Below the pieces are notes generated by a model. It saw only the letters and a program-made list of their open reading frames with translations. It was not told where the DNA came from and did not search any database. The position numbers and the translations under genes are program-made. Source: Candidatus Micrarchaeota archaeon (GTDB lineage: Archaea; Micrarchaeota; Micrarchaeia; Anstonellales; Anstonellaceae). From it: a stretch of 64,000 bases of DNA. The number at the start of each line of letters is the position of its first letter. Within the stretch, counting starts at the first letter, position 1. Below, piece by piece: positions 5,525 through 40,506 of this stretch. Where the stretch lies: assembly GCA_021814005.1 (NCBI GenBank), contig JAKAJC010000004.1, forward strand, positions 230-64,229. The letters run 5' to 3'.

Positions 5525-5525
5525 C

Positions 5526-6314: not shown

Positions 6315-6353
6315 CTTTTACAAAAATTATCTAATTTCATCAGAATAATTCAA

Positions 6354-7082: not shown

Positions 7083-7258
7083 AAGAATATCCCTCCTAAA
7101 TGCTTGGCCCAAACAGGGGCCATGGAACTACTAATCAGGTTCCGTTTTTGTTTCGAGTGTACGAGAGATAGTGGGGGCCCTATCTATAATAATATATATG
7201 GTTGGGCGGGCCCGCGAAAGCAGCCGGTTTGGCTCAAGCGGCCGGTTTGGCCAAATAT

Positions 7259-8745: not shown

Positions 8746-8753
8746 TCACTCAC

Positions 8754-9464: not shown

Positions 9465-9614
9465 GAAGACACCTCGAAGATAATGCACTGCATAACCGAA
9501 GAAGATTTATAATTGGGGCGCAGCGGCCCCAGACTTGCGCGGGCGAGAAGCTAATTCTGTTTTTGATTTTTTTGTTTTCCGGCCTTTGCCACCTCTTTTC
9601 GCATTCGACGGGAG

Positions 9615-9623
9615 TTTTATAAA
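9615..9623 (+). promoter_or_regulatory. TATA box (TTTTATAAA) centred about 27 nt upstream of the G1 ATG, predicting a leaderless transcript
   Basis: AT-rich box in a divergent intergenic region shared with psmA. The spacing matches the archaeal TATA-to-TSS distance. Confidence 0.45.
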
Positions 9624-9645
9624 CGATATCAGTGTTGCATCGTCA

Positions 9646-20100: not shown

Positions 20101-21423
20101 CCCAACGGCCGCGCGTTCGCCTCCTGTGCCGCCTGCCCAACCGACTGCCGCTATGATTATCTCACTGCCGCGGGCATCAGGCGCCCAAACAGCCAGGACA
20201 ACTACTGCGGCTGGAGCTTCACCGCGCCAACCGCATGCTTTTCCATCACGCTGGAGCGCCTGCGCGGCAGCGACATCCCAAGCGTGAACAACACCCGCTA
20301 TTATTCGTGCACGCAGACCGAAGCAGGCCAATACCACTGGGTGCGCACAAGCAGCGGCGTTGACAACAGAAGCGACAGCGGCTGCAACGCGGCCTGGTAT
20401 CCGATTGGCCACTTCACCAACCAAACCGTTGCCAACCTCGCGTGCGGCCCAGGCACTTTCAGCAACACCACGAGCGATGTCTACTCATGCACGCCGGTCC
20501 ACAAGTATCCGGCCCTCGACAGCCTTGTCACCTCTTCGGGCGGGCCTTCCGATTACCGCGAATGCGGAGACATAAGCGTCAACGGCCAGAATCCGAACAA
20601 CAACCTCTGCGGCGCGCGCACGTTCGGCGGCGCAAGCGTCCAGCTGTGCAAGAACGACCGCGCGGCAACAGATTCGTGCTTTGCCCACTTCAACGCGCTC
20701 GCGGTTGCCTGCCTGCCGATTACCGGCGTGGTGAATGATTACACAGACCCCGCCAACAATCCGACCAAGGCGGAGGAGAGCTGCCAGAACTGCCCGCTCT
20801 TCTGCCGCATAGACAACGGCGGCCAGATATGCTCGCCGTGGTCTGCCGGCGGCGAGCCTCCCAAATGTGATTTCCCCAACCAGTGCGACCGGCGCACTGC
20901 TCAGGGCAGCGGCTACTGCGGCATCCCGTCATCAGCATTCAAAATTGGCCAGGGCTGCGCGAATTACACCGGCGGCTCCGGCGTGGGCTGCCCCGCCCGC
21001 TGCCGCGTTTCACTGCCGTCCGGCAACGTGCCATACGGCTGCTCGGGCGGTGAAATCGGCAACGCATGCTCGCCCGGCAATCTTGATTCGGCATGCACCG
21101 CCACCCCGCCCGACAATCCGTGCGCAGGCTGCGGCGAATGCGACACCGACTGCCGCTCCACGCCTTATGTGCGGCAGAACTGCGACGACCTCTGCCTGCC
21201 GACAGACTTTGCCACCGGAGCCTCGCCCATCACGCCCAAGGACCTTTTGATGTCGTGGGAAGGCGCGTCGGGCAACCCCGACTGGCGCTCATTGGGCTCT
21301 TTGGGCATCGCCGCTTTCCTGCTGCCGATTCTCAACATCATACTCACTCTTGCATTCATCCGCAGCCTCTCGCCGGTGCTGGGCGGCGACATCGAGATTC
21401 CGGGAATACTCAAGGTGCTGTGA
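17194..21423 (+). CDS. Giant Cys-rich membrane glycoprotein G5 (1409 aa). An N-terminal paralogous membrane module is fused to a roughly 1000-aa Cys-rich ectodomain, followed by a C-terminal TM.
   Basis: The motifs are VYMAGIFFQSEDAKQLARTEI and LAPALLFLGVILRSLFFTRKLGGMMLAAG. The ectodomain has at least 13 copies of C-[PD]-x-x-C-[RKQ], for example CPSECRF, CPAFCRT, CPLYCRS, CPIECRV, CPLSCRL, CPTDCRY, CPLFCRI, CPARCRV and CDTDCRS. It also has many N-x-S/T sequons. The C-terminus is AFLLPILNIILTLAFIRSLSPVLGGDIEIPGILKVL. Confidence 0.75.
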   Translation: MRNENENPARRESGVCFAPVNTAPAGFLPLHAPHVFLFLLCLLCISPIIFSQNTTIQPVLTAQNATFGFDNYVRATLAAAALMAAIMALVYMAGIFFQSEDAKQLARTEILQTALSVIIVAFLLAILLGVDTGLRLTSAEIVSPCVGRTLPASITSATLLNQYAFCYAQGLNEMAIAQGDTTIRKSVTFAKKAYRMEGFQTDLWWLLYGGLTRRPDANLRLDSEIMGQEFTLLTSFMVSLQGQLAFLQYIVPALAPALLFLGVILRSLFFTRKLGGMMLAAGAGLLLVWPATYLLSWFTLQVAVFGPSVMGEEPGSTCPTSCKILPPAGYNISTANPDSWGSPPAGSPYATGAISAKQMASAGGSSIAPDIGDEAAWKLRGVQTCYPQYNYTEDKTTGTRTYTLPAGYSSSVPVQSSDKCPSECRFLPTPTDLNCDLAACDNIPIACKAIRAMNLSTSPLPNPPDNCNSCTSCPAFCRTILPQVKYANPANPAAGVVPTTNANSCSANPGNATLCPLYCRSYLHTDASNTISYSTPDCQAACQATLDNKKDAATSQPDCMLGIPAAMMECNTPNVCGPAMNLEAAIASGRTDLCPIECRVNFNSSGTEDRYKDPTFNQYCTGSGKFGTACDTQCPSTCKVKASAENAALPNSFSLGVPNSFIVSTGAGSVLCAAAPTFTNGQMDSSVNGQCARCPLSCRLRNPSSILDLDNNHSTYFFSQSHYALTCNYRNTTPIILYSGACRNSTFPPGWLAFASEDPSGISLSQIGRGPPECAPTARIYLRMDSSDPLCPLFLAPIPPYIKDGTLSNDPSNSAVSAIIPPNTDVSAECSTPDAQKYCLGKDPQGQPYCDISCQPDRAVNGPFYCHLTDLYSPLSSIPDNTQRCGACSSPAADNSKGPQCQVMLTSGSTLYLPKGCDPSCAPGSLDTATGIILNPDTDPKSRASCGGFCYPRLPIPSCSAYAPASTTNPNGRAFASCAACPTDCRYDYLTAAGIRRPNSQDNYCGWSFTAPTACFSITLERLRGSDIPSVNNTRYYSCTQTEAGQYHWVRTSSGVDNRSDSGCNAAWYPIGHFTNQTVANLACGPGTFSNTTSDVYSCTPVHKYPALDSLVTSSGGPSDYRECGDISVNGQNPNNNLCGARTFGGASVQLCKNDRAATDSCFAHFNALAVACLPITGVVNDYTDPANNPTKAEESCQNCPLFCRIDNGGQICSPWSAGGEPPKCDFPNQCDRRTAQGSGYCGIPSSAFKIGQGCANYTGGSGVGCPARCRVSLPSGNVPYGCSGGEIGNACSPGNLDSACTATPPDNPCAGCGECDTDCRSTPYVRQNCDDLCLPTDFATGASPITPKDLLMSWEGASGNPDWRSLGSLGIAAFLLPILNIILTLAFIRSLSPVLGGDIEIPGILKVL

Positions 21424-22718: not shown

Positions 22719-25700
22719 ATGGAGAAAAAGAACCGGCCGCATTCACCGAAGTTCTCATCGCCATCGCCCATGCCGCACCTTGCGCTGTTATTTCTCTTGG
22801 CCGCAGTTCTGCTCGCTCCATTTGTTTCGGCAGACATAACCGCAACAATTGATTACAACAGCGCCCCTCCCCCGCCCGCCTCGCCCTGGCTCACCATAAC
22901 TCCGATGACTGTGGGCGTGAGCGCCGACTGCGGCACCATACCGCCCTGCGTGCCGCCGTTCAGAATCAATTTCCAGTTCGTCTGCGGCGGCACCCCTGTG
23001 CAGGAAACATTCACAAACGTCCCGCCGGCCTCCCGAACAGCATACACCTATTATCCAAACTCCGACCCCGCATGCCGCGAGCCGACGCCGCTGAATTCCA
23101 TAATCACAATCACCGACACTACTGGACAATCATTTTTCACGCAAAGTTTCCCCGTAGCTCTGGCAAATGGTACAGACACCACTCCGCCGGGCATCTCGTG
23201 GAATCCCGTGCCGCCGCCAGAATATGATGCGGGCGCAACCATCAGCTTCGGCTTCACAGTCACCGACCCTGACGACAACACCAACGCGATTCCGACATTG
23301 TATCCAAATGTCGCCACGGCCGAGGTGGAAATCACCGACTTGGGAAACGGCCAGGTCTATGGGCCATATGACATGGGCCCGTTCCCTCCACCGAACGGCT
23401 GGAGCACCCAAGTCTTTCATATAGAAGGCACCCCCAGCGCCGACCACACTGTTGAAATCAACTGCAGCCGCCTCAACTGCGTCGGAGATTTGCAAATAAA
23501 AGTCAGGTCCCACGACCCTGCGGGCCTTGGCATTACCCTGCCGCCAATGATTGTGCGCAGGCGCGGCGGCCTGGTTCTTCCCTCTCCCATATTGGGCATC
23601 ATCCCGCCCGCACCCGTCTGCCCCAACGCGGCCATCCGCGCCATGGCAAACCAGCCGTCTGGCTCCCCTGCAATAGACAGCCATGAATACAGCTGGTCCA
23701 TCACTCCAAATCCTCCGGTGCAGATAGATACTGTGCCCGACACCGCCAAAACGGGCGCCACTTCAGACACATTCGACTGCGCGGCGCGCAACTGCCAGAA
23801 CGGCCAGACCGTGTCAGTAAGCGTGCTCGCCATCGCCGGCGCCCAGCGCTCCCCTCCCAACGCCACCCTGATTCTCGTCGACGGCAGCAGCCTTGACTGC
23901 AGAATGCCGGCAGCCCCGCTTCTCACCAACCAGACAATATCCATCTCGCCCTTCAACGCGATAGTGCTGGCAAACCAGAGCAACAACGATCCGCGAGCCG
24001 TGCTCCACCGCTATGTCTGGACCATGGCCGACGGCACAGTCATCGAATCCCCGCTCATGCCCCTGCCAATCCAAAATGTCACATCAGCTCCCGTGCCCTG
24101 CGCCGCGAATCCAAACCTCTACTGCCCGTCGGGAGGAACCGTCCTTCTCACGGTCTATTCATACACTGCGCAGAATGTGCAATCCCAGCCAGCATTTATC
24201 TCCATCTTAATTCCGGCGCGCTCAGCCCTCAATCCGCCGGTGGTTGTCACCAAGCCCTTCAGCCCGTATGACAACGACACCATCGTGCTTGTTGCAAACA
24301 ACCAGAACGAAGAGGTGGACCGGCACCAGTACCGCCTGCTCATCATCAATGCGGACGGCACTATATACCAAGAAATCGATGCTCCAATCTACGACACTGT
24401 TTCCACAACCGCGGCAGACAAACACACCACCACATCCAAGCCATTCACCTGCACGACAAGCGTATGCAGGGGCCGCTTTGCCAACATAACCGCCCGCGCC
24501 TACAATTCCCTTGGCTGGTCAGACTGGTCTCCCTGGCTGAGCGTCCCATTCGGCCCGCCGCCGATTCCTGCGCCAATACTTGTGCGCATCGACCCGATTC
24601 CACCCGGCAATTCGATGCTGTCAGACATCAATTCCGGACTTGGCGCGCTCCTCAACACCTCGCTTGCCTACAGCTTCACAATAACCCCGCCCGCCGGCCA
24701 GCCGCCGTTCAACGACTATATTCCAACCCTCACAGTCAACGGCGCAGACGCGCCGGTTTCATCCAGCCGCTCGGGCAACAATCTCATCATCACTCTGGCC
24801 TGCACCCCGTCATCATGTCCGAACGGCTCAATCCTCACATACAAGGTAATCGGCGTGCAGGCGGGAGCGAATTCCACTCCCCTGTATTTCTCGCTTGTAG
24901 TTCCGCAGGCGAGCGGCATGCCCGCGCAGGTGGGCGTCATCTGTTCCGGCGCCGAACTGCAAAGATGGCTGCAGGTGATGGCCATCGGCATGATGGCCCT
25001 TCTCGCCCTTATCGCGCTCGTCTATATGATTGGCGAGGCGCTGCACCACCCGCAGCTTTTGGAATGGTCCAAATCAGAAATCGGGCACGTGGGCATGACC
25101 ATCATCCTCTTCTTCCTCATCGTATGGCTGATTCAGTTCCAGTGCAACCTGACGGTGGGCGAATTCCTCAACTGGTCTGGCTCGTCAAACCCCCTCTACT
25201 CGTCAGGCATGACGCTTTCACAGGCAGGTCTCAAATCGCTTGAATGGGGCATCACCCAGACGCGGCTCACCCTCGTGGCCATGCGCTACGAGATGGGAGT
25301 GCTCAACATGCGGGCCACCTATTCCTCCTACTCCACCCAGTTCCCCGGAATGGGCGGCAACGGCTACAGCTTCATGCCCTTCTCGGGCGATTACACCCTG
25401 CTCGGCTCGTTCGGCATGCTCACCAACCTCAACTCCACTTTCCTGCTCGCGCTCCTCTTCCAGCTATTCTCGCTGTTCTTCTTTTCCTCTTCCAGCGGGC
25501 TGTTCATATTCCTCGTGCCGGTCGGCCTCATACTGCGCTCGGTTCCGTTCATACGCGGATTCGGCGGCTCGCTGGTGGCCATCGGCATCGGCTTCTACAT
25601 ATTCTATCCGATTCTGCTTGCCTTCACCGGCCTTCTGCTCGCGCCGCTCTACTCGGGCATTGACTCCACCAGCCAGCTCGGCATCGCCGACGCCTCGCAG

Positions 25701-25991
25701 CTGGAGGCAAAAGAGCTTGCGATTCACACGCCATTCAGCAGCACCGGCCTTGCTGGCGACAACATTTTCAGCTACAATCCGGGCGACCCGTATCCGGGGC
25801 CGCTGATGCCCACCGCCGGCAAGGACTCGCCGCCGAAGCTGGGAATATATTTCAATCTAACTGCCCTGAATTTCCTGCGCGCCATCCTCATTCCGACCGC
25901 AGGGCTGATAGTGACCGTGTCATTTGTGCGCGACCTCGCGGCCATTTTCGGCGAAGAGGTGGACGCGTCGAAACTGATTGCCATGATTTAG
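22719..25991 (+). CDS. Giant surface glycoprotein G7 (1090 aa). It has a signal peptide, a roughly 700-aa sequon-rich ectodomain and a C-terminal paralogous membrane module.
   Basis: The signal peptide is LALLFLLAAVLLAPFVSADI. There are many N-x-S/T sites (NGT, NCS, NQT, NAT, NVT, NDT, NIT, NTS, NGS, NST). The module motifs are LVYMIGEALHHPQLLEWSKSEI, LVPVGLILRSVPFIRGFGGSLVAIGIGFYIFYP and a C-terminal ILIPTAGLIV...FGEEVDASKLIAMI. Its ATG abuts the stop of the upstream gene. Confidence 0.75.
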   Translation: MEKKNRPHSPKFSSPSPMPHLALLFLLAAVLLAPFVSADITATIDYNSAPPPPASPWLTITPMTVGVSADCGTIPPCVPPFRINFQFVCGGTPVQETFTNVPPASRTAYTYYPNSDPACREPTPLNSIITITDTTGQSFFTQSFPVALANGTDTTPPGISWNPVPPPEYDAGATISFGFTVTDPDDNTNAIPTLYPNVATAEVEITDLGNGQVYGPYDMGPFPPPNGWSTQVFHIEGTPSADHTVEINCSRLNCVGDLQIKVRSHDPAGLGITLPPMIVRRRGGLVLPSPILGIIPPAPVCPNAAIRAMANQPSGSPAIDSHEYSWSITPNPPVQIDTVPDTAKTGATSDTFDCAARNCQNGQTVSVSVLAIAGAQRSPPNATLILVDGSSLDCRMPAAPLLTNQTISISPFNAIVLANQSNNDPRAVLHRYVWTMADGTVIESPLMPLPIQNVTSAPVPCAANPNLYCPSGGTVLLTVYSYTAQNVQSQPAFISILIPARSALNPPVVVTKPFSPYDNDTIVLVANNQNEEVDRHQYRLLIINADGTIYQEIDAPIYDTVSTTAADKHTTTSKPFTCTTSVCRGRFANITARAYNSLGWSDWSPWLSVPFGPPPIPAPILVRIDPIPPGNSMLSDINSGLGALLNTSLAYSFTITPPAGQPPFNDYIPTLTVNGADAPVSSSRSGNNLIITLACTPSSCPNGSILTYKVIGVQAGANSTPLYFSLVVPQASGMPAQVGVICSGAELQRWLQVMAIGMMALLALIALVYMIGEALHHPQLLEWSKSEIGHVGMTIILFFLIVWLIQFQCNLTVGEFLNWSGSSNPLYSSGMTLSQAGLKSLEWGITQTRLTLVAMRYEMGVLNMRATYSSYSTQFPGMGGNGYSFMPFSGDYTLLGSFGMLTNLNSTFLLALLFQLFSLFFFSSSSGLFIFLVPVGLILRSVPFIRGFGGSLVAIGIGFYIFYPILLAFTGLLLAPLYSGIDSTSQLGIADASQLEAKELAIHTPFSSTGLAGDNIFSYNPGDPYPGPLMPTAGKDSPPKLGIYFNLTALNFLRAILIPTAGLIVTVSFVRDLAAIFGEEVDASKLIAMI

Positions 25992-27199: not shown

Positions 27200-30100
27200 T
27201 TGGGAAAAGAAAAAGAAATTGAGAGCATGCGCGCACAGGCGCCGCACCCGTCGCGGGAATCGGACAGTGGAACAAATATCAATCTGTTGTTTTTGGCCGC
27301 CATCTCCCTCTCCCTTCTCTCCCTCATTTTCCTCTCGGGCTGCGTGCAGCCCAACTCCAACCTCTCCTACGGCGCGTGCTGCATGCAGAGCAATTCGTTC
27401 TATACCTGCCAGGTGCGCACCGACGCCAACGGCACGCAGCAGCGGGATTCGAACGGCAACCTTCTCATCGACGGCTGCGGCCCCTGCATTGCCGTTGCCA
27501 AGAACGGCACGGTTTACAACTCGTCCGGCCCAACCGACGCCGCGCTCTGCACAAACAACTGCAACTTCAAGCAGTCCAACTGCACCAATTTCGACGGCAA
27601 AAACACCTGCTATCTTGTGGACAAGAACATGCAGACAACCAACGAATCGGTGGGCCCGATTTGCATGGCCGCAACCGACCCGTGCGTGCAGAACAACTGC
27701 ACTGCCATGGTTTACGGCAAGCCGCTTCCATCCCCCAAGCGCAGCATCAACTCCCAGTCGGTGCAGCAGTCCAACAACCCGGACGGCAACGCGTTCAAGC
27801 AGGACGCGGCCAACCAGAAGACCGGCCTTGTGGGCCGCATCATGCAGTTCAGCCAGTTCAACACCCGCCTTGCCCGCCTCTTGAAAAGTCCGGACTGGTC
27901 TGTGAACACTTTGCGCCTCGGCCTCCAAGGACAATTTTCCGACTACGACCGCGCGCGTTTCTATCTTCCGCCCTCGGATTACTTCTGCCCGCAAAACAAC
28001 CCCAACGCAATAGTTGACCGCTACACCGCCTATCTGGACGGGTTGAGCGCGCTCCCGCCTTTCCGCTCATACTACACTGTCAATTACGCAACAACCTGCA
28101 GCCCCGGCCACAAAAAACCCCCGTATGGCGGCTGGTATTCAACATGCACCTGCACTCCCTCCAGCCCTCCCGCCCCGCCGTGCGGCAAGGATTTCATGGG
28201 TTCTTCTGCCCTTGATGCAGAAGACATGTGCAACTCCTCCTGCACGAATTTCAGCCGTGTATACAGCACGCCCAATTTCAAGAATCCGCTCAGCCTCTGC
28301 CGCCTCGAGCCGGCATCAGGCGCCAATCTCTCCTACTTCTACTGCGATGTCAATCCCGGGCTCAAGTTCACCATCGCCGACCCGTCCGACCAGCTGCGCG
28401 CATATCTTTCCTGCCAGAAAGCATGCAGTTACAGCCAATACCGCACATGCAGCCAGAATCAGGACCTTCTGACCTACAACGCCAATCTCCACCCCAATAT
28501 TTATTCGCCCTCCAATTGGCCTCCACAAACACCTCCGGCCGGCTCAATCCAGCCGTTCATCGACATCGACCAATATGCCAAGGCGCTTGCGAACGCTTAT
28601 CCGACTCCGACCGGGCCGGCCTGGTGCCCCGCGCTTGTGGCGCTAAGACCCGACCCTGCCAAGGAGGCGGCGATGAAGAATGACCCGCGCAATTACTACA
28701 AATGCCTTCTGCCCGAACCCAACAGTGCCGGCGCCAACCAGACCATAGCCGCCTACGGCATCACGGCCGACCAGTACAACACCACCTATATGAGCGAGGG
28801 CATCAAGCCCGGGCCTGCCGGCGGCAAGGTGTTTGAGTGCACCGGCGGCGGCGACTGCCTCTCCGGCATCTGCGACAAATCCACCTATTCGCGCACCTCA
28901 TGCTTCCTCAAAGACGGCTCTGCGGTTGACTGCGCCTGCCGCTGGGTAACCAATTGCAAGCTCGCGTACCAATGCTCGGGTTACGAAGCCCGCAGCATCA
29001 GAAAAGACCAGTGCGAGGTGAACCTCAACAACTGCCAGGAGGCACAGGGAGGCTCGGACTATCCGGTGCTGATGTGCGAGTACCGCATCAATCCGCTCAC
29101 TCCCCAGACCGCCAATCCGCCCATCCATGGCCTGCGCACCCCCTACGCCTCCAGTGGCAACTATGTTTTCAACGACGGCCGCAACGGCTACGGCATTCTG
29201 CATATCGAGGAATTCAACAAATACATCGACGCTGCGGTCGCGGACGCCGAGCTTGCCACGGTGCAAAGGCCCTCCACTTCGCTCGAATTGTGCCCAAGCC
29301 GCGTGCGCCGGCCATGCGCCTCTTCAACAGAACAGGGCTGCTATGTGAGGAACACCAATCCTCCCGACGTGTCGGTGCTCTGGCAGCATGACGGCGACAG
29401 CGACGTATACCAGAACATACCGGCCTACACGCCCACCTACGACGCCTGCCCAAGCGGCGGCACGCTGTCCAATGTCTCTGGCTGGAAAGACACTCCCAAG
29501 GCATTTGGCGACTATTTGCGCGACAGTTCCTACCCCTCGCGCGAAACATTTGCTCTCGTGCCCACGCAGCAGGCGGTGGCCGGGCCGGGAGGCGCGCATT
29601 TCATCACCACCAGCCGCTATGTGACATGGCAGAATGACAACTGCTATTTCTCGCTCTCCGGCTACACTCTGAGCGGCTCAAAATGTCCGGCAGACCAGGT
29701 CCGCTTCCCGCTCTTTCAGGCCTGCAACATGAGCGTTAATTCCGAATATTTCAACAAAGCCGCAGGCAGCAGGAGCTATCCTTATCAGGACGCGTATCAG
29801 GCCGAAATATACAATGCCCGCGGGCAGGATGCGGCCGGCTCCGCGTTTGATGTGAAATATGTGGACGGCTATTCCTACGACCCAAACAACAACGACACCC
29901 TTTATTCCTACGGCGGCTCTGACCCCTACCGCATAGACAAGACGTGGGCAATCTACAGTTTCGGCGCCTGCCAGGTCCAGCCAAGCACCCCATCCGCTCC
30001 GGCGGTGTCGGGCAAGAGCCCGCCGCCGGTGGTGTTCAGCTACGGCATGTGCCGCTCGTGCGGCACCCTGCTGTCCATGGCTTACCAGCCGGTGAAGGAT

Positions 30101-31864
30101 TCGCCTCTGGCCTTCCCATACGACTTCAACGGCTACTGCCCCTCGGGCTGCAAAAAGTATATTTGGAACGGCTTTCTGAATATGGGGCCGAAATTCTCGT
30201 GGTGCGCCGAGTGCCCGTCCAGCTATCCTGCGCAGACTTTCAGCCAATTCGCAAGAGGCTCGCCGGCAATGTATCCTGATTTCGGATTTCTGGCCGACAA
30301 AATCAACGAATACCAGTCATCCAACATCCTGCCAGTTCTGGATGTGCGCAACTACCACTATGCCGACGGGGGCAGCACTGTTGTGAGAGTGCCGTTCTCA
30401 AATCTCTGCCAGACGCTCGGCGGCAAGAGGGGCGGCTCCGGCGCAATCAACCAAAACGGCGGCGTGTATCAGGGTTCTGCCTGGGACTGCACCCTTCCCG
30501 CACAGCCCGACTGGCTGCTTGCATATCTGAACAAGAACCACTCGGCCGCGGTTCTTATCGTGGCCAACCTGCCCCCCGCCGCAATCGACCCGGCTGTCGT
30601 GCAGGCGGAGGTGGACCGCTCTGCGAAGGCCTGCCCCAACTGCCTGCGGGCGCTCGAATACGTCCCGCTTCTCACGCCTTCCGACGTGACGGGGGCAGAC
30701 TACAATTATCCTTCAGCCCTCAACGACTCGGTGGCTTCATACACGAACGTGTCATTCAATCCCCTGCGCGTCAGCACGCCTCCCGAATGGCTGTCCAACC
30801 GCGGCAAGAAGCCCGACAACGTGCGGCAGGTGGACATGATAGTGCTTGAGCTTGACATGTCCGGCGTGGACATGACCAACGAGACGACCGTGGACAACGC
30901 AGTCCTCGCTTATGTCAACCTCTCGCGCCGCCTGCTGCAGCACGTGGGCTGGCCGACAATTTGGAAAATCAATTACAGATTCGGCATGTACCCCTCCGCG
31001 CTCACCAACGACGTCCTCTACCGCCGCATCATAGCGCACGAGCGCGAGATGACGCTGGCAGGGGTGAGCGGCGTGCTTATGCCGGCCATGGACAACGGCG
31101 ACCCGGACGGGCACATCACCGGCCCGCCCACCGAGCAGTTCGGCCGCCTTCTTCCCAACACCGGCGGCTTGAGCGGCTCGAGCCTTATCCGCGCATCCGG
31201 CACGCCTTTCTGCGCCCTGCAAAATGCCTCGGCCGAATTCCTGCATCCCAAGATGATGGTCGGCACCCAGAAAATTCTGGCCAAGAACAACTGCTCCTGC
31301 CTGCCGTGCAGCGACATGGACCTTCTGGCCGGCAACTGCAACAACAAGTGCTATGACGGGCTGGCCTGCGAGGCTCCCGGCGGCGGCACAAGCGCCGGCA
31401 GCAAGTGCGAGCCATACTGCGTGCGCAACAGCTTCTGCCAAAACAACCTGTGCAACGGCACCCAGATTGGAAGCAAGACAACAACCTGCACCGCCCTGCG
31501 CCCCACCAACCTGCCGCCTGTCTCCTGCGGCGCCAACAACGCCCTCTTCCCCAAGTGCGACGTGCTGGCCGATGCCGCGCTCAAAGACATAGCCGCATTG
31601 CCGCAGGCGCCGCAGCTTATCGGCGGATTGCCGCCGGGGCAGGGCTGCTGCCTGTCGCAGAATCGCACCTATTACACCTACCGCTCTGCCGGTTCTGCCG
31701 CCACTTCAGCAGAGCCGGTCATTTTCCCCGGCTACGGCGCCAACACCACAGACTGCGGGCGCGTGCCGGACCCGGGCGACCCCTATTCCGACCCGTCCGC
31801 AAACTGCGCCGTGCCGCCTGCTCCGCTAAGCAATGTGATGTGGACCTGCACCCCGCCGAGATGA
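27200..31864 (+). CDS. Giant Cys-rich secreted lipoprotein-like protein G9 (1554 aa) with no membrane module
   Basis: The track gives a TTG start; the ATG at MRAQAPH is an alternative. The signal peptide ends in the lipobox-like LSGC. It is extremely Cys-rich, with CxxC, CPxxCK and CPxC pairs. It has many sequons and a hydrophilic C-terminus. It is the last gene of the cluster. Confidence 0.75.
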   Translation: MGKEKEIESMRAQAPHPSRESDSGTNINLLFLAAISLSLLSLIFLSGCVQPNSNLSYGACCMQSNSFYTCQVRTDANGTQQRDSNGNLLIDGCGPCIAVAKNGTVYNSSGPTDAALCTNNCNFKQSNCTNFDGKNTCYLVDKNMQTTNESVGPICMAATDPCVQNNCTAMVYGKPLPSPKRSINSQSVQQSNNPDGNAFKQDAANQKTGLVGRIMQFSQFNTRLARLLKSPDWSVNTLRLGLQGQFSDYDRARFYLPPSDYFCPQNNPNAIVDRYTAYLDGLSALPPFRSYYTVNYATTCSPGHKKPPYGGWYSTCTCTPSSPPAPPCGKDFMGSSALDAEDMCNSSCTNFSRVYSTPNFKNPLSLCRLEPASGANLSYFYCDVNPGLKFTIADPSDQLRAYLSCQKACSYSQYRTCSQNQDLLTYNANLHPNIYSPSNWPPQTPPAGSIQPFIDIDQYAKALANAYPTPTGPAWCPALVALRPDPAKEAAMKNDPRNYYKCLLPEPNSAGANQTIAAYGITADQYNTTYMSEGIKPGPAGGKVFECTGGGDCLSGICDKSTYSRTSCFLKDGSAVDCACRWVTNCKLAYQCSGYEARSIRKDQCEVNLNNCQEAQGGSDYPVLMCEYRINPLTPQTANPPIHGLRTPYASSGNYVFNDGRNGYGILHIEEFNKYIDAAVADAELATVQRPSTSLELCPSRVRRPCASSTEQGCYVRNTNPPDVSVLWQHDGDSDVYQNIPAYTPTYDACPSGGTLSNVSGWKDTPKAFGDYLRDSSYPSRETFALVPTQQAVAGPGGAHFITTSRYVTWQNDNCYFSLSGYTLSGSKCPADQVRFPLFQACNMSVNSEYFNKAAGSRSYPYQDAYQAEIYNARGQDAAGSAFDVKYVDGYSYDPNNNDTLYSYGGSDPYRIDKTWAIYSFGACQVQPSTPSAPAVSGKSPPPVVFSYGMCRSCGTLLSMAYQPVKDSPLAFPYDFNGYCPSGCKKYIWNGFLNMGPKFSWCAECPSSYPAQTFSQFARGSPAMYPDFGFLADKINEYQSSNILPVLDVRNYHYADGGSTVVRVPFSNLCQTLGGKRGGSGAINQNGGVYQGSAWDCTLPAQPDWLLAYLNKNHSAAVLIVANLPPAAIDPAVVQAEVDRSAKACPNCLRALEYVPLLTPSDVTGADYNYPSALNDSVASYTNVSFNPLRVSTPPEWLSNRGKKPDNVRQVDMIVLELDMSGVDMTNETTVDNAVLAYVNLSRRLLQHVGWPTIWKINYRFGMYPSALTNDVLYRRIIAHEREMTLAGVSGVLMPAMDNGDPDGHITGPPTEQFGRLLPNTGGLSGSSLIRASGTPFCALQNASAEFLHPKMMVGTQKILAKNNCSCLPCSDMDLLAGNCNNKCYDGLACEAPGGGTSAGSKCEPYCVRNSFCQNNLCNGTQIGSKTTTCTALRPTNLPPVSCGANNALFPKCDVLADAALKDIAALPQAPQLIGGLPPGQGCCLSQNRTYYTYRSAGSAATSAEPVIFPGYGANTTDCGRVPDPGDPYSDPSANCAVPPAPLSNVMWTCTPPR

Positions 31865-33107: not shown

Positions 33108-34910
33108 ATGGAATCAGCCAAGACGGCGCTGGGGCTCACCCGCTATTTCGTGGCCCTGCCGCCCGCCAAGCACATGCTCGCCTTTCTCCTTCTCTCCACG
33201 CTCATAGGCGGCGCGCTGCTTGACTGGGCCCGCTCCGGCCGCCTTGACGGCGTTTCTCTTATGAGCGGCGCGGGCAGCGCGCTTATCACCATCGCCATTC
33301 CCTCCCTCATTGCCGCGGGCGCATTGGCGGTTTTGCGCAGGCGCGTAACCCCGCAGCGCGCCTTGGCGGTCGGCCTGATTTCAGGGCTGACCTATCTGTT
33401 CTTTTTCATCTGTGCCGCCGCCCTGAGCCACTTCTATCTTCCGGCATCCAACCTTGTCTTTGTGGGTTTTGGCGTCGCATTTCTTCTCTGGCTCACGGTT
33501 CTCAAATACGCGTTCGGCCTCACCCGCTCGGCATGGCTGTTTGCCATCGCCCAGCTTTTGGGCTACACTTTCTTCATGCTGGCCGGCTCCTCGCTCTATC
33601 TGGAGGCCCCCACCGACACCCTGATGCGCGTGGTGCTTGCAGCATCCGTGTTCGTGGCCGCCCTTTATGCAGTGCTCTCATTTGCCTCCGGCCCCCTCAA
33701 GCGCAATCTCGGGCTCAAATCAGGCGACATATTGTCAGGCTTTTCCAGCCAGTGGCTTTTTGGTGAAAACGATTTGGAGGAGGCGTTTGACGAAATCGGC
33801 GAAAACGTGCAAACCTATGTTGGCATGGCCGAGTGGCGCACAAAGCACGGCAATCTGCGGTGGGTGGTGCCCTATGTCCACTTCGGCCCGTTCGGCTCAT
33901 TGGGCGGCAGCCACTTTTCCTACAAAATGGCCGAGGCCCTCTCAAACCAGCGCACAATGGCAATGGTGTTTCACGGCACCTGCACCCACGACTTTGACCC
34001 GGTTTCATCCAAGCAAATCAACGCACTTCTGGCGGCCTGCCAGACCATGAGTTCAAAATTCTCTTTCAAACCCGCGCGCTTCACATACAAAGAGGGCAGT
34101 GCCGGCGCCAGCCGCTGCTACTTTCTGGCTGTAAACAATTCCGCCCTGCCAAGCTTTTCGCGCGCGCCACTTTCCACAGAAGACGTGAATTTCGGAGTGG
34201 GCCTTGCGCTTATGGCAAGGGCCGAAACAGCATATTCAAACGCCCTTGTCTTCGACTGCCACAATGCCGAGACGGGAGATTTGGATTATATCGAGCCCGG
34301 CTCGGCCGAGTCGTTTGAAATGATTGACTCTTTGGAGCACGCATTGTCGAGCATGGCCAAAAATACAAAATCCTCCCCAATGTGCGCAGGCTGGTCTGCA
34401 TCAGATGCAGAAGGCATAGGCGGCATCGGAGACGGCGGAATAAAGGTGAGCTGCTTTGCGCCCGCAGGCCGCGCAGACGAATCCCTTTTCTACATCCTCA
34501 TCGACTCCAACGGCATCACCGCCGGCGCGCGCGACCGGCTTATCGGCGCTGTGCGCACCTATTACCCGCGCTCATCGTTTATCGAAGTGCTCACAACCGA
34601 CACCCACCAGCTCAATTCAGTGCGCGGCGTGTTCAACCCCGCAGGCGCGACAGACGAGGCCGCGCTTGAGAAAATGGCGGTGCAATTGTGCGCGCAGGCG
34701 CACGGCCGCCTCTCGCCCGCCACATTCGCAATGGCAAAGCAGAGGGTAGAGGTGAAAGTGCTAGGGCCTTATCAGTCAGCCGAAATAGTCGCAACCCTAA
34801 ATTCGGTTGTCGCGGTGCTCAAATTCGCCCTGCCAATAATATTTTTGGCAGCCATCGCGCTGGTGCTGTTCATACTCGGCAAAATTCCGGGAAGCACGAT
34901 AGCATTATAA
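33108..34910 (+). CDS. Polytopic membrane protein (600 aa), possibly the archaeal DUF2070-type family
   Basis: It has about 6 N-terminal TM helices, a roughly 350-aa soluble domain and a final TM (VLKFALPIIFLAAIALVLFILG). The family call is from memory of the architecture only. Confidence 0.55.
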   Translation: MESAKTALGLTRYFVALPPAKHMLAFLLLSTLIGGALLDWARSGRLDGVSLMSGAGSALITIAIPSLIAAGALAVLRRRVTPQRALAVGLISGLTYLFFFICAAALSHFYLPASNLVFVGFGVAFLLWLTVLKYAFGLTRSAWLFAIAQLLGYTFFMLAGSSLYLEAPTDTLMRVVLAASVFVAALYAVLSFASGPLKRNLGLKSGDILSGFSSQWLFGENDLEEAFDEIGENVQTYVGMAEWRTKHGNLRWVVPYVHFGPFGSLGGSHFSYKMAEALSNQRTMAMVFHGTCTHDFDPVSSKQINALLAACQTMSSKFSFKPARFTYKEGSAGASRCYFLAVNNSALPSFSRAPLSTEDVNFGVGLALMARAETAYSNALVFDCHNAETGDLDYIEPGSAESFEMIDSLEHALSSMAKNTKSSPMCAGWSASDAEGIGGIGDGGIKVSCFAPAGRADESLFYILIDSNGITAGARDRLIGAVRTYYPRSSFIEVLTTDTHQLNSVRGVFNPAGATDEAALEKMAVQLCAQAHGRLSPATFAMAKQRVEVKVLGPYQSAEIVATLNSVVAVLKFALPIIFLAAIALVLFILGKIPGSTIAL

Positions 34911-36263: not shown

Positions 36264-36320
36264 CTGTATTTTCAGCCCCCTTCTTGAGGCTAAGGCTGAG
36301 CTTTTGATATTCTATTTTTT

Positions 36321-36390
36321 TGCTGTTTTGCTGTTGCCTATTTTTGCTATTCTGTTACTGCCTATTGTTCGCTGTTCTGCTTTGCCTGCT
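36321..36390. repeat. Pyrimidine-rich low-complexity tract of degenerate short repeats (TGCTGTT, TGCCTATT, TGCTATT, CTGTTCTGC) in the promoter region of the Lon-like ATPase gene
   Basis: Read directly from the sequence. The track's 36320 start would translate this tract as Leu/Phe/Cys repeats, which is implausible. Confidence 0.5.
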
Positions 36391-36487
36391 TCAATTCGGG
36401 CATAAAAGAATATATACCCCAATCAGGGCACGGGGAGCGCATAAGCCAATCCATCTCCCTTTTATTCCTCCATGCCTTTATTTTTTT

Positions 36488-37924
36488 GTGGGAAACCCGT
36501 TTGATTTCGACGACACGTCGAGCGTAAAAGTGCCGTCCACTTTGCTCGAGCAGGTAATCGGGCAGGAGGAAGCCGTGCGCCTTGCCCGCGTCATCGCAAA
36601 GCAGCGCCGCCATCTTCTGCTGGTAGGCCCGCCCGGCACAGGCAAATCCATGGTGGCGCAGGCCATCTCCTCTATCTTGCCCAGGCCGACTCAGGAAGTT
36701 TCCGTGCTTCACAATCCTGCCAAACCAGAGCGCCCATTCCTAGAAGTACGCACCCGCCCCCAAATCGAGGAGCAGGTCCGCGGCAGGCCTCCCGCAGGCC
36801 TTCTAATGCCAATCGAGCAGGCGCCCCCCTTTGTGACCGAGCGCCTCGGCTACCGCTGCCACGCATGCAGCCGCAACTCATCTCCAGACGCGCCTCTCTG
36901 CCCGCATTGCGGCGCCGAGAAATTCCGCGGCGGCGCGGGCCCGTTCGATGATTTGGTTGTGGGCCTTGGCGCGCCCGAGCGCGAGGAATCTGTTTCCACC
37001 ACCCGCATAATGGGCGGCAAGGAAGAGCTTGTGGTGTTCGAGCGCTTTGACGACCGCTGCGTGCGCGCGCTTGACCAGAAAGAGCTTTCCAAGCTCGACC
37101 ATTCCGACACGCAGCTGCCGCGCAACATTCTTCTCAATCTTGAGCGCCCCTGCTTTGTGCAGGCGACAGGCGCGTCAGAAACAGAGCTTCTGGGCGATGT
37201 GCGCCACGACCCGTACGGAGGGCATTACCAAATCGGCACTCCGCCCTATTCGCGCGTGGTGGCTGGAGGCGTGCACGAGGCGCACGAGGGTGTGCTGTTT
37301 ATCGACGAGCTGGTCTCTCTGGGACGGCTGCAGCGCCACCTTCTCACCGCAATGCAGGAGCGAAAATTCCCAATCACCGGGCGCAACGCATCCTCAACCG
37401 GCGCGTCTGTGCGCGTGGATTCAGTGCCGTGCGAATTCATTCTTGTCGCGGCAGTAAACACATCCGACTTGCGCAAAATCCTGCCACCACTGCGCTCGCG
37501 CATAGGCGGCAACGGCTACGAGCTGCTCATCAACACCACCATGCCCGACACCGAGGCAAACGTGCAGAAGCTGGCCCAGTTCGCGGCTCAGGAAGTGCGG
37601 CGCGACGGCCGCATTCCGCACGCAAGCCGCGCGGCCGTGGAGGCGCTGGTGGGCGAGGCGCGCCGCCGCGCCAAATCTGTTGACCACGCGGCCGGCCTCA
37701 CGCTGCGCCTTCGCTCTTTGTCAGGCATTCTCAAAATGGCCGGAGACTGGGCGGTGTCAGACACTGCCCCGCTTATCGAGGAAAAGCATGTGAAGCTGGC
37801 GATTGAGCGCGGCAAGCCTGTTGAAGAGCAGATTATGGGCCGCTACGGCAGCGCATACAAGGCCGCCATGTCGGACTGGGGGCTTTCAAACCGCGTGCCC
37901 ACTGATGACAAAAACATCGGCTAG
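36488..37924 (+). CDS. LonB-like AAA+ ATPase lacking the C-terminal protease domain and the membrane insert, with a CxxC...CxxC zinc-ribbon insertion
   Basis: The N-terminus FDFDDTSSVKVPSTLLEQVIGQEEAV...LLLVGPPGTGKSMVAQAISSIL is typical of archaeal LonB. Walker B is VLFIDEL. The sensor-2 region is present. Between Walker A and Walker B lies a hydrophilic insert containing GYRCHACSRNSSPDAPLCPHCGAEKF instead of the LonB TM hairpin. The ORF ends about 40 aa after the AAA+ module. I chose the GTG start, preceded by TTTTATT about 25 nt upstream. Confidence 0.65.
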   Translation: MGNPFDFDDTSSVKVPSTLLEQVIGQEEAVRLARVIAKQRRHLLLVGPPGTGKSMVAQAISSILPRPTQEVSVLHNPAKPERPFLEVRTRPQIEEQVRGRPPAGLLMPIEQAPPFVTERLGYRCHACSRNSSPDAPLCPHCGAEKFRGGAGPFDDLVVGLGAPEREESVSTTRIMGGKEELVVFERFDDRCVRALDQKELSKLDHSDTQLPRNILLNLERPCFVQATGASETELLGDVRHDPYGGHYQIGTPPYSRVVAGGVHEAHEGVLFIDELVSLGRLQRHLLTAMQERKFPITGRNASSTGASVRVDSVPCEFILVAAVNTSDLRKILPPLRSRIGGNGYELLINTTMPDTEANVQKLAQFAAQEVRRDGRIPHASRAAVEALVGEARRRAKSVDHAAGLTLRLRSLSGILKMAGDWAVSDTAPLIEEKHVKLAIERGKPVEEQIMGRYGSAYKAAMSDWGLSNRVPTDDKNIG

Positions 37925-37947: not shown

Positions 37948-38769
37948 CTAATTAGCCGCCTTTTTCATGCGCCCGGCCCAGGCAGTCTCGCGGGCGCGCT
38001 CTTCTCCGTAAATGTATATGTCCTCGAGCATTTTTTCGCCAGTTTTCACCCATTTCAAAAACGCGCGCTGCTCAGCCCCGTCCATGTACATCGCAGTCTT
38101 GTGCATTATTCCGGTCATGAAATAAATCAGTTCGGCCGCTTTCGGCTCTGGCGCATCAGGATTGTTTTTGAAATACCGCTGGCGGGAAATGGCATCTTCC
38201 AAATCATTGAACCGATAGACAAACCACTCAACCGAAATTGCGAACGCTATGGATTTCACCAGCGCAACCTGCTCCGCGCTCGCCTCTTTTCTCGGACCCG
38301 CTTCGGCGAAAAAGGCCTGATTCTCCTCAGGTGTTCTCTTCATGGCCCGCATGACTGAAGGGCCCCAAAGCACGAGATTCATATATGCCTCGAAGGGGCT
38401 TCCGCGCTTGTGATACAACACCTGAGGCGAGTCGGACAGCGCGCCAAGCCATTGCTTCATGGGGCCGGTGATTGATTCCGGCGCCTGCCCCTCAAACGGC
38501 TTTATTTCTTTAATCAATTCAAACCACTGGCTGGCTGCGGCGCCAAATTCGCGGATTTGCTGCATCCGATATTCTGAAACCGCTATGCCCATTTTTGATT
38601 TGTCTATCTCCGGCGCCAGCCGTTCTATCTTATGGCGTCCCCTGCGGTTGAGGCGAATCGGCACAATCTCCGGCGTCAGCCGTTCAATCTTATGGAGTCC
38701 ACTGCGGTTGAGGCGAATCGACGCAATGTCAAGCTTGCCGCTCGGCGTGGAGTTTATCGCTTTTCGCAT
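37948..38769 (-). CDS. Hypothetical protein (about 273 aa) with an N-terminal 2 x 20-aa tandem repeat
   Basis: I prefer the start at MRKAINSTPSG, with a TATA-like CTATTAAAAACAAC 16-28 nt upstream (leaderless). A start at 38592 (MGIAVSEY) is an alternative. The track's 39084 start adds a GC-driven Arg/Gly-rich extension that overlaps the HerA promoter, and I reject it. Confidence 0.5.
   Translation of the reverse strand: MRKAINSTPSGKLDIASIRLNRSGLHKIERLTPEIVPIRLNRRGRHKIERLAPEIDKSKMGIAVSEYRMQQIREFGAAASQWFELIKEIKPFEGQAPESITGPMKQWLGALSDSPQVLYHKRGSPFEAYMNLVLWGPSVMRAMKRTPEENQAFFAEAGPRKEASAEQVALVKSIAFAISVEWFVYRFNDLEDAISRQRYFKNNPDAPEPKAAELIYFMTGIMHKTAMYMDGAEQRAFLKWVKTGEKMLEDIYIYGEERARETAWAGRMKKAAN
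38608..38727. repeat. Two contiguous 60-bp tandem direct repeats, about 88% identical
   Basis: Unit 1 is ctccggcgccagccgttctatcttatggcgtcccctgcggttgaggcgaatcggcacaat. Unit 2 is ctccggcgtcagccgttcaatcttatggagtccactgcggttgaggcgaatcgacgcaat. The length is a multiple of 3 and in frame with the minus-strand ORF, where each unit encodes HKIERL(T/A)PEI(V)PIRLNR(S/R)G. Confidence 0.7.
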
Positions 38770-38809
38770 GTTGTTTACTATGGTTTTTGTTGTTTTTAAT
38801 AGCAGAGGG

Positions 38810-38935
38810 GCGGAAAAGCGCCTCCCATCTCTTTCCGAACCGCGGAGGGGGGCTTTGGCCCCCCTCCCCAGTTTGAGGTTCTTCCTGACCCTCCCCCCAC
38901 GAATATTTGAGCGGAAAAGCGCCTCCCATCTCTTT
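38810..38935. promoter_or_regulatory. Divergent-promoter element. It has two perfect 25-bp direct repeats (gcggaaaagcgcctcccatctcttt at 38810-38834 and 38911-38935) flanking a perfect 10-bp GC hairpin (GGAGGGGGGC-TTTG-GCCCCCCTCC at 38844-38867).
   Basis: Read directly from the sequence. Repeat B abuts the HerA TATA (CTTTTTATTG at 38931-38940, about 25 nt before the ATG). Repeat A lies about 13 nt from the TATA of the minus-strand gene. Confidence 0.55.
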
Positions 38936-38961
38936 TTATTGTTCACGACGTAAAGCGAGAC

Positions 38962-40506
38962 ATGGTTTCCGGCCCAACCACCTCCCCTCTTCCCGCTTCC
39001 GCGCTGGGCACTGTCATCTCCACTTTCGAGGGCACCCCCAACACGGCCGAATTTCATTTTGTCATCCAGTCGGGCGACGTGCACAAGGGCCAGTTCGTGC
39101 AGGTTGTCACCCCTTCCGGCCCTGTCCTTGGCTCGATAACCGAAATCTCGCGCGCCAACCGCTATTTCGAGCGCGCCGAATCTGTTGCAGAATACGAGCG
39201 CCTTGGCGTGCTATCATCGCAGTTCCCCACAACCGAATGGGAATACATGGTTGCGGTGGTGCGGGTGCAGGGCGTGCTCAACGGCGCGCACATGGGCCGC
39301 TGCTCCATCCCCGTCGCCCCCGGCGCGGCCGTTTCGGCAGCAACAGAGGAGCAGCTCAAATCTTTTCTTGGGTTTGACGATTCGGGCCTTCATGTGGGCA
39401 CAGTGGCCTATCATACGCTGCCAGTGCGCCTTGGTTTGGGCCGCCTTTTGCAAAAGCATCTGGCAATTCTGGCCATGTCTGGCGCAGGCAAATCCTATCT
39501 TGCCTCTGTTCTAATCGAGGAGCTGCTTGACCGGCCGGCAGCCAGCGGCCGCCTGGCCGTTGTTGCGCTTGACCAGCACGGAGAATATGTTGGCTTCAAA
39601 GATTCAATTTACCGCGACCGCGTCACCGTGGTGCCGGGCAAGAAAATCCGCATCGGCCTTCGCCATCTCTCAGCCTCCCATCTGGCCGAATGGTCTGAAA
39701 TGTCATCCACCGCGCGCCGCGCTCTTGACAAGCATGTGGCTGCCCTCAAGGCCGAGATAAAAGAAAAGCAGGAGCCGGTTGGCCTCTCCGAATTGATTGA
39801 GCGCGTGCGCGACGATGCCGACCTCAACAAAAAGGAAAATGTGCGCGGCCCCCTTCTTGCCGCGCTCGAAGAGCTTGAGCATCTGCACCTCATAGGCACA
39901 ACCGACACCCTCAAACTTTCCGAGCTGATAAAGCCCGGACATCTCATAGTGCTCGACCTTTCCGACATTGACGATTTGCGCAAAAAGCAGATGATTGTCG
40001 CATACTACGGCCGCAAACTGTTCCGCCAGCGCAAGAAAGGCCTTATCCCGCCCTATGTCATGCTGGTGGAAGAGGCGCACAATTTTGCGCGCGAAAAGGC
40101 CGAGCGGCGCAACGCGCTTTCAAAATCCATGATTGAAACCATTGCGCGCGAGGGAAGAAAATTCGGCGCAAGTCTTTGTCTCATCACCCAGCGCCCCGTC
40201 CAATTGTCCACAACCGCCCTCTCGCAATGCAATTCCAACATCATTTTGCGTGTAACAAATCCGTTCGACCTCAAGCACATCGGCGAATCATGCGAGGGCA
40301 TCGACTCGCACATGCTTGACTCCATCACCTCATTGCGCGTGGGCGAGGCCCTTGTGGTGGGCGAGGCCGTGGGCGCGCCCATCTTTGTCAAGGTGAGGCA
40401 GCGCAAAAGCAAAGTTGTGGCGCGCGGCGAGTCTTTGGAAAAGCTGGCAAAAGAATTTGAGGAAAAAGACAAAAGAAAAGAGGACGAGATTGAGGCATTT
40501 CTCTAA
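38962..40506 (+). CDS. HerA-like ATPase (HAS-barrel + DUF87/FtsK-HerA superfamily)
   Basis: The N-terminal HAS-barrel-like beta region is GTVISTFEGTPNTAEFHFVIQSG...GQFVQV. Walker A is LAMSGAGKSY. Walker B is YVMLVEEAH. LITQRP is the typical HerA motif. No NurA, Mre11 or Rad50 genes are nearby. Confidence 0.7.
   Translation: MVSGPTTSPLPASALGTVISTFEGTPNTAEFHFVIQSGDVHKGQFVQVVTPSGPVLGSITEISRANRYFERAESVAEYERLGVLSSQFPTTEWEYMVAVVRVQGVLNGAHMGRCSIPVAPGAAVSAATEEQLKSFLGFDDSGLHVGTVAYHTLPVRLGLGRLLQKHLAILAMSGAGKSYLASVLIEELLDRPAASGRLAVVALDQHGEYVGFKDSIYRDRVTVVPGKKIRIGLRHLSASHLAEWSEMSSTARRALDKHVAALKAEIKEKQEPVGLSELIERVRDDADLNKKENVRGPLLAALEELEHLHLIGTTDTLKLSELIKPGHLIVLDLSDIDDLRKKQMIVAYYGRKLFRQRKKGLIPPYVMLVEEAHNFAREKAERRNALSKSMIETIAREGRKFGASLCLITQRPVQLSTTALSQCNSNIILRVTNPFDLKHIGESCEGIDSHMLDSITSLRVGEALVVGEAVGAPIFVKVRQRKSKVVARGESLEKLAKEFEEKDKRKEDEIEAFL

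Follow-up and report, generated by a model that had tools for sequence, protein, structure and literature searches.

LonH, a protease-less paralogue of archaeal LonB, in a Micrarchaeota genome: family, genomic context and possible function

What becomes of a Lon protease that has neither a protease domain nor a membrane anchor? The question is raised by a gene on a contig (JAKAJC010000004.1) of a Candidatus Micrarchaeota archaeon of the Anstonellaceae, which we analysed over a stretch of 64,000 nucleotides (positions 230 to 64,229; hereafter the window). An earlier, sequence-only reading had described the product as a LonB-like AAA+ ATPase in which a zinc-ribbon insertion stands in place of the membrane hairpin, and had proposed a substrate-remodelling ATPase or a regulator derived from Lon. 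Judged by sequence comparison, the gene is the Micrarchaeota member of an old, catalogued and uncharacterised family, for which we adopt the short name LonH (from 'putative Lon protease homolog'), which is related to LonB, the membrane-bound protease of archaea, as a soluble paralogue. As the most likely function we tentatively propose that LonH unfolds or remodels proteins, as a soluble enzyme that cooperates with separate partners.

The gene, lonH, begins with a GTG codon and encodes a protein of 478 residues (Table 1). This start, at 36488, is preferred over the TTG at 36320 of a longer, mechanically called open reading frame (ORF) because the N-terminus, MGNPFDFDDTSS..., lines up with those of orthologues (MGNPFDF, MASPFDF or MGFSFDF), while the residues that the longer frame would add are hydrophobic and unconserved. 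The protein matches the NCBIfam model for LonB (TIGR00764) with an E-value of 1.1e-103 and 348 bits, under the equivalog cut-off of 516.6, and the match covers the model only to position ~406 of 608. The best solved structure is LonB of Thermococcus onnurineus (TonLonB, PDB 3k1j; E 2.6e-86), with residues 6-89 aligned to chain positions 26-108 and residues 209-453 to 143-386. When the protein is set beside LonB (TonLonB, 3k1j/4zpx; T. acidophilum Lon; MEROPS S16; TIGR00764), the AAA+ module is homologous throughout: both have the N-terminal strand-helix unit, GDVRHDP(F/Y), Walker B, LRSRI, sensor-2 and the LonB-specific lid (PF20436), and identity is ~45-50% over residues 209-453. These results bear out the assignment to the LonB type and dispose of the ComM/Mg-chelatase alternative that the earlier reading had itself raised, since ComM/YifB/Mg-chelatase models touch the Walker A region only (PF01078 covers residues 20-70 alone), TIGR00368 reaches just E 5.6e-14 and 51.6 bits against a cut-off of 362.4, and the LonB match is better by ~90 orders of magnitude. 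A BrxL/LonC-like defence Lon was likewise rejected, PADLOC having returned generic P-loop matches only.

Where the window protein departs from LonB, it has a 109-residue zinc-ribbon domain in place of the transmembrane hairpin, is predicted to be soluble and has no Ser-Lys protease domain. The reading frame runs on for 55 residues beyond the sensor-2 motif LTLRLR and ~25 beyond the lid, and a comparison of the window with 15 full-length LonBs (tblastn) gave matches only at 36485-37864, with no protease-domain match in any frame; a hidden Markov model (HMM) of the protease domain had no match in the window either. A frameshifted protease remnant, for which a check had been advised, is therefore not seen, and the next gene, as had been stated, lies on the other strand. 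The alternative that lonH is a lonB pseudogene, cut short or in decay, or a product of misassembly, nevertheless finds an echo in the C-terminus of the Micrarchaeota proteins: their E-V/I-G end is similar to the [EK][VI]G found ahead of RVNGL where the LonB protease domain begins. The likeness would fit a truncation long ago at the boundary between the domains, but the evidence is weak, the spacing being off by ~7 residues. Length and all functional motifs are, however, kept in hundreds of genomes from several phyla, and a 100% identical protein (P0001) occurs on two independent contigs; such conservation refutes the pseudogene explanation, which we regard as having a negligible chance of being correct.

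A second kind of protease-less LonB-like AAA+ protein was also observed, in P0143 (407 residues, labelled Micrarchaeota) and P0139 (441 residues), which keep the transmembrane hairpin and have no zinc ribbon. The genes of this kind (L088/L089, 5001-6224; L090/L091, 5001-6326) lie inside cobalt/cobalamin clusters, in the order CbtB ... ATPase-CbiM-CbiN-CbiQ-CbiO in one locus pair and CobS-CobT-CbtB-unknown-ATPase-CbiX-CbiD-CbiC in the other, and their products may be membrane AAA+ proteins for cobalt handling.

The insert of lonH occupies residues ~100-208 and has no LonB counterpart. It had been predicted as a hydrophilic domain of ~150 residues with a CxxC-(14)-CxxC zinc ribbon; its hydrophilicity (grand average of hydropathicity, GRAVY, -0.48) and the Cys4 ribbon stand, but its length is 109 residues and the spacer 10 residues, not 14. 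Averaged over 19 residues, Kyte-Doolittle hydropathy peaks at 0.37 within the insert and at 1.31 over the whole protein, so that no transmembrane segment is predicted, in agreement with the reported lack of a hairpin. None of the four cysteines varies among 22 Micrarchaeota orthologues or among 14 members that are more distant, and the best 150 representatives at 50% identity fall into a strict split: those with the zinc ribbon are all without transmembrane segments and no longer than ~540 residues, whereas those with the hairpin are without the ribbon and are mostly full-length LonBs. An AlphaFold (AF2) model of the insert alone, built from 29 sequences, has a mean predicted local distance difference test score (pLDDT) of 80.8 and consists, in order, of a short strand, a helix, the zinc knuckles or ribbon, a three-stranded sheet and a helix. 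Foldseek found nothing better than E 0.2 and a template-modelling score of 0.21 for this model in the PDB, and therefore no known domain can be assigned past 'zinc ribbon plus small sheet'.

Homologues with the same insert, which the sequence-only reading had recommended seeking, prove to form a widespread archaeal family. A search of 5.8 billion proteins recovered more than 120 orthologues at 55-100% identity, nearly all of 465-483 residues and named Micrarchaeota, Anstonellaceae, Gugararchaeum or Burarchaeum. In two alignments, one of 22 Micrarchaeota sequences and one of 14 sequences down to 31% identity, the four cysteines, Walker A, Walker B (D273, E274), R336, R338, LTLRLR and GDVRHDPYGGH are invariant or nearly so. 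Exact-sequence look-up placed two members in Swiss-Prot as 'Putative lon protease homolog' (Thermoplasma acidophilum Q9HLX6 and T. volcanium P58275), and others in Methanothermobacter thermautotrophicus (AAB85390.1), Acidiplasma, Aciduliprofundum boonei (WP_008084136.1) and among metagenome-assembled genome proteins labelled Korarchaeota and Thorarchaeota. Identity between the window protein and Q9HLX6 is 51% across residues 6-469, a stretch that takes in the insert (E 3e-167); against the proteins of Thermoplasmatota and Methanobacteriaceae loci it is 50-55% across the same residues. Scanning the species genomes of GTDB yielded at least 594 related loci; the 80 that were retained comprise Micrarchaeota, many Thermoplasmatota (Methanomassiliicoccales, Thermoplasma, Acidiplasma, DHVE2) and Methanobacteriaceae. 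The zinc ribbon is present and the protease domain absent in 87/87 loci examined.

From end to end, through insert, Cys4 ribbon, lid and tail, Q9HLX6, P58275, AAB85390.1 and WP_008084136.1 share the architecture of the window protein, which has the features that define membership (a Cys4 ribbon in the insert, ~450-510 residues, no protease domain). The architecture is thus already catalogued and the window gene is an ordinary orthologue of a known uncharacterised family, although these four proteins, unlike the window protein, have an x-Y/F-x end and genes directly downstream of dnaG. At the level of sequence, LonH is shown to be under purifying selection across several archaeal phyla. Thermoplasma and Methanothermobacter presumably possess a canonical LonB as well, which would make LonH a paralogue and not a replacement. 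Divergent zinc-ribbon paralogues of ~442 residues were also encountered (P0133 and P0135, in L094/L095), in which Walker B is degenerate (VLYISDL, ALYLPDL) and the pore-loop motif lost; they are probably ATPase-dead, and in L094 a phage-type integrase lies ~2 kb from the paralogue. Lon-like-Ms of Methanobrevibacter smithii was considered as a characterised relative and set aside, being a different, 77-kDa protein with a C-terminal domain (PMC4864567) and a bacterial-like origin.

The sequence of LonH retains a complete LonB-type AAA+ module, with Walker A and B, LRSRI, LTLRLR and a pore loop with an invariant aromatic residue, and the remodelling ATPase or Lon-derived regulator of the earlier reading is compatible with this intact ATPase site and pore loop. 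That LonH has kept the pore-loop motif of LonB speaks for the threading of polypeptides. By analogy with LonB, we suggest that LonH would form a hexameric ring in which Tyr243, powered by ATP, draws polypeptides through the central pore. The entry face, in the position of the LonB membrane anchor, would then bear the six zinc-ribbon domains, which might select a client or an adaptor; the exit face, in the position of the LonB protease ring, would bear the six flexible C-terminal tails, which might contact a separate partner. The Micrarchaeota copy would be expected to act as a protease-independent unfoldase or disassembly ATPase, while the family as a whole may be functionally tied to DnaG and has, in other lineages, a tail that resembles a docking peptide for the 20S proteasome.

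The tie to DnaG comes from genomic neighbourhoods. ORFs were clustered over 88 loci and DnaG was then sought with an HMM of the upstream cluster, 'directly upstream' meaning on the same strand and -200 to +700 nt upstream, with loci counted where there was enough upstream sequence. One neighbour dominates: the gene directly upstream on the same strand, which the NCBIfam model NF003108 (cut-off 300 bits) recognises as archaeal DnaG in five lineages, with 455-558 bits. It occupies this position in 41/44 Thermoplasmatota and 4/4 Methanobacteriaceae loci (45/48 outside Micrarchaeota), and in 4/31 Micrarchaeota loci. Spacings of -4 to -19 nt between dnaG and lonH are common, the stop codon of the one overlapping the start codon of the other, and suggest co-translation. 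On a Thor-like contig the order is DnaG-OsmC-LonH-Pelota, such that DnaG is one gene away and Pelota downstream.

Archaeal DnaG is both a cap subunit of the exosome and a Toprim primase, and LonH could be imagined as a nucleic-acid-directed motor, whose zinc ribbon and hexameric ring would supply archaeal DnaG with what bacterial DnaG has from its own zinc-binding domain and from DnaB, or as an ATP-driven remodeller of ribonucleoproteins (RNPs) or RNA feeder of the DnaG-capped exosome. The operon is kept across Thermoplasmatota, Methanobacteriaceae and some Micrarchaeota, zinc ribbons are commonly nucleic-acid binders, and Lon belongs to the same AAA+ clade as the DNA motor RuvB, the next-best PDB match after LonB. 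Yet the LonB-specific GDVRHDP(Y/F) motif has not changed, a point in favour of a polypeptide substrate, searches with Pfam, NCBIfam and Foldseek revealed no domain that binds nucleic acids, and linkage to dnaG is lost in most Micrarchaeota, the window included; we consider a motor of this kind unlikely.

The C-terminus offers a second clue. The last ~25 residues are modelled with low confidence and differ from protein to protein, but each lineage keeps a characteristic end. In Thermoplasmatota and Methanobacteriaceae all 47 complete proteins end in a small or hydrophobic residue, Tyr or Phe, and any residue, just as in the operational definition of the HbYX (hydrophobic-tyrosine-X) motif by Forouzan et al. 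2012 (PMC3493965). The ends of these proteins include GYQ, SYE, SYM, AYQ, TYQ and MFH (...DDRSYE in T. acidophilum, ...IDRSYM in M. thermautotrophicus), and Korarchaeota-like and Thor-like members end YFA and YFF. LonH might therefore, once it had lost its protease ring, have become a further regulatory ATPase of the archaeal 20S proteasome beside PAN, Cdc48 and AMA, with its exit-face tails docked in the pockets of the alpha ring and substrates fed to the 20S particle. Going by LonB architecture, a flexible tail would indeed leave the ring on the protease face, and the window encodes a normally gated proteasome alpha subunit, with a YDR motif and a pocket Lys. Micrarchaeota tails, on the other hand, end E-V/I-G/A, with Val (63) or Ile (40) as the penultimate residue in 103 of 117 orthologues in place of Tyr or Phe, and elsewhere the residue at -3 is often Gly or Ser and not hydrophobic. 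Docking is a prediction from sequence, the published HbYX surveys consulted dealt with classical AAA proteins only, and the conserved tail could instead bind DnaG, PCNA or the zinc-ribbon domain of LonH itself. A proteasomal role for LonH is on these grounds conceivable and rather improbable.

Two further explanations of the tail were dismissed. Loss of the proteasome as the cause of the non-aromatic Micrarchaeota end is at odds with the normal gated alpha subunit of the window, and the Thermoplasmatota tail (SQ..Y.YW), inspected by eye as a PCNA-interacting peptide (PIP) box, does not fit the register Qxx[LIVM]xx[FY][FY]. The alpha subunit heads a classical archaeal exosome superoperon on the minus strand (Table 1), and by its gene content this Micrarchaeota genome has both a proteasome and an exosome.

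Several observations weigh against LonH as an unfoldase with separate partners. The window copy of lonH has no adjacent dnaG, nor is there a DnaG-like ORF anywhere in the 64 kb; its product ends NIG, without the small or hydrophobic residue at -3 and the Tyr or Phe at -2 of the HbYX definition. Both contextual clues consequently come from orthologues. That LonH forms hexamers, hydrolyses ATP and binds zinc is inferred, as is the kind of substrate on which it acts, and because zinc ribbons often bind nucleic acids the substrate may be something other than protein. An AF2 model of the whole protein was set aside because its ATPase core is poorly predicted (pLDDT <50 for residues 207-316). Finally, the searchable literature holds no paper on the function of the LonH family and no biochemical data for any member.

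A bolder and distinctly doubtful extension would unite the two clues. LonH would then represent a new class of ATPase in archaeal degradation machines, a Lon-clade unfoldase without a protease of its own that docks on the 20S proteasome by an HbYX-type tail, is co-transcribed with the exosome subunit DnaG and physically links RNA and protein degradation, for example by stripping proteins from RNPs that pass to the exosome and destroying them; the copy in Micrarchaeota would then be a derived form whose tail has been re-tuned.

An unfoldase without a protease domain might alternatively be one half of a two-component Lon, working with a separately encoded S16 protease-domain protein. Stand-alone S16 proteins do occur less than 10 kb from lonH in two Micrarchaeota loci, 2.2 kb downstream in L022 and also in L029, but these are 2 of ~39 Micrarchaeota loci, and there is none in the window or in the Thermoplasmatota loci. 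Nor does a Lon_C family appear next to lonH in the Pfam tables of the neighbourhoods examined; the only S16 domains near lonH are those of a LonA in L058 and of the apparently secreted or membrane-bound proteins in L022 and L029. In the L022 protein a basic stretch is followed by an N-terminal signal or transmembrane segment, and a further transmembrane segment lies at the C-terminus, a topology that suggests an extracytoplasmic protease domain, beyond reach of a cytosolic ATPase. We judge a two-component Lon very unlikely. Both stand-alone S16 proteins (L022, 13597-15393 on the plus strand; L029, 3-1520 on the plus strand) have the N-terminal signal or transmembrane segment, a long helical C-terminal region and the C-terminal transmembrane segment, and look extracytoplasmic.

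None of the neighbours of lonH in the window points to a protease partner. Upstream is a DUF2070 membrane protein (E 2e-102), found near lonH in 9 loci; an NMD3 gene is likewise near lonH in 9 loci and adjoins DUF2070 in L001 and L002, which looks like lineage-specific synteny. Two small conserved ORFs are also among the neighbours. About 1 kb downstream lies a HerA-like DUF87 ATPase with a HAS barrel; such a gene is directly downstream of lonH in L001 and L024, while in A. boonei the DUF87 gene is next to PAN, 6 kb from lonH. The window DUF87 ATPase matches the PADLOC HerA models (E 9e-45), probably through generic HerA similarity. Of the minus-strand ORF that follows lonH, only the C-terminal ~210 residues are shared with the related contig L008, which has them in the corresponding position.

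Repeats were noted on both sides of the gene. The T-rich 24-bp unit TTTTTGCTGTTCTGCTTTGCCTA occurs three times just 5' of lonH, between it and a divergent gene of 200 residues, and may be a shared promoter or regulatory region. Inside the minus-strand ORF a 60-bp unit is present twice in tandem (90% match), corresponding at protein level to a duplicated ...IRLNR.G.HKIERL.PEI... segment. Elsewhere, five very large ORFs (1090-1554 residues) take up about a third of the window, and none matches a Pfam family at E<=1e-5.

Table 1. Positions of lonH, its parts and other features in the 64,000-nucleotide window
Feature	Position	Strand	Remarks
lonH-type gene, protease-less LonB paralogue without transmembrane segments, 478 residues	36488-37924	+	GTG start; TGA/TAA stop counted in
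N-terminal part, LonB-type AAA+ alpha/beta subdomain, residues 1-99	36488-36784	+	aligned to 3k1j residues 26-108
Walker A GPPGTGKS, residues 47-54	36626-36649	+	invariant: G47, P49, G50, G52, K53, S54
Inserted hydrophilic domain, residues 100-208	36785-37111	+	at LonB hairpin site; gap in LonB alignments
Cys4 zinc ribbon, C124-x2-C127-x10-C138-x2-C141	36857-36910	+	invariant Cys; weak Pfam Zn_ribbon_3/DZR matches
LonB-type pore-loop motif GDVRHDPYGGH, residues 236-246	37193-37225	+	Tyr243 invariant; aligned to TonLonB GDVRHDPFQSG
Walker B VLFIDE, residues 269-274	37292-37309	+	D273, E274 invariant
LRSRI, residues 335-339	37490-37504	+	R336, R338 invariant; arginine-finger region, as we presume from LonB
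AAA+ lid (alpha-helical) subdomain, residues 378-453	37619-37846	+	Pfam PF20436 LonB_AAA-LID at 378-441; pLDDT 87-93
Sensor-2 motif LTLRLR, residues 404-409	37697-37714	+	inside lid
Flexible C-terminal tail, residues 454-478, ending ...TDDKNIG	37847-37921	+	pLDDT 43-65; place of LonB linker to protease domain
T-rich 24-bp unit, three copies	36317-36387		just 5' of lonH
Minus-strand ORF after lonH	37948-39084	-	C-terminal ~210 residues conserved
60-bp unit, two copies	38606-38727		inside minus-strand ORF
DUF2070 membrane protein	33108-34910	+
HerA-like DUF87 ATPase	38962-40506	+	HAS barrel
Exosome superoperon	4739-9488	-	psmA at its head
Proteasome alpha subunit (psmA)	8757-9488	-	YDR gate motif and pocket Lys; normally gated
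Unknown ORF of 259 residues	7969-8745	-	exosome superoperon
SBDS/Sdo1	7262-7969	-	exosome superoperon
KH-domain Rrp4-like gene	6357-7112	-	exosome superoperon
Two RNase PH genes, Rrp41/Rrp42	5529-6314 and 4739-5524	-	exosome superoperon
Very large ORF	50-4177	-
Very large ORFs	9535-13956, 17194-21423, 22719-25991, 27200-31864	+

For 25 years members of the family have been listed in the genomes of such model archaea as Thermoplasma and Methanothermobacter as 'Lon protease', a misleading name, and have been given no function. Neither the dnaG operon nor the HbYX-like tail of the wider family was found in the searchable literature, and the near-universal dnaG-lonH operon outside Micrarchaeota, together with that C-terminus, makes the function of LonH directly testable. 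If the link to the proteasome is true, a non-classical AAA+ protein joins the archaeal proteasome network; if the link to DnaG is true, LonH supplies an ATP-dependent cofactor not known for the archaeal exosome/DnaG complex. For annotation, LonH proteins are not proteases and should not count as Lon in metabolic reconstructions of DPANN archaea.

Three known systems help to place LonH. ClpX appears to follow the same logic, as an unfoldase of the HCLR clade without its own protease domain, with a Cys4 zinc module on what would be the substrate-entry side and partner docking by flexible peptide elements. Its zinc module is, however, N-terminal and not inserted between Walker A and Walker B, the two zinc domains are unrelated in sequence, and ClpX docks ClpP, which is absent from archaea, by IGF loops and not by a C-terminal tail. 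PAN, Cdc48/VAT and AMA, the archaeal proteasomal ATPases with an HbYX motif (Forouzan et al. 2012, PMC3493965), resemble LonH outside Micrarchaeota in carrying a small/hydrophobic-Tyr/Phe-X end on the flexible tail of a hexameric AAA+ protein, if LonH is hexameric; LonH, however, is of the Lon clade and not a classical AAA protein, with no OB or N-domain, and the window protein lacks the aromatic tail residue. A parallel to the insertion is found in LonC. The LonC of Meiothermus taiwanensis also has a soluble Lon-insertion domain between Walker A and Walker B, in place of the LonB anchor, but its protease domain is kept, its ATPase motifs are degenerate and its insert is helical and without a zinc ribbon.

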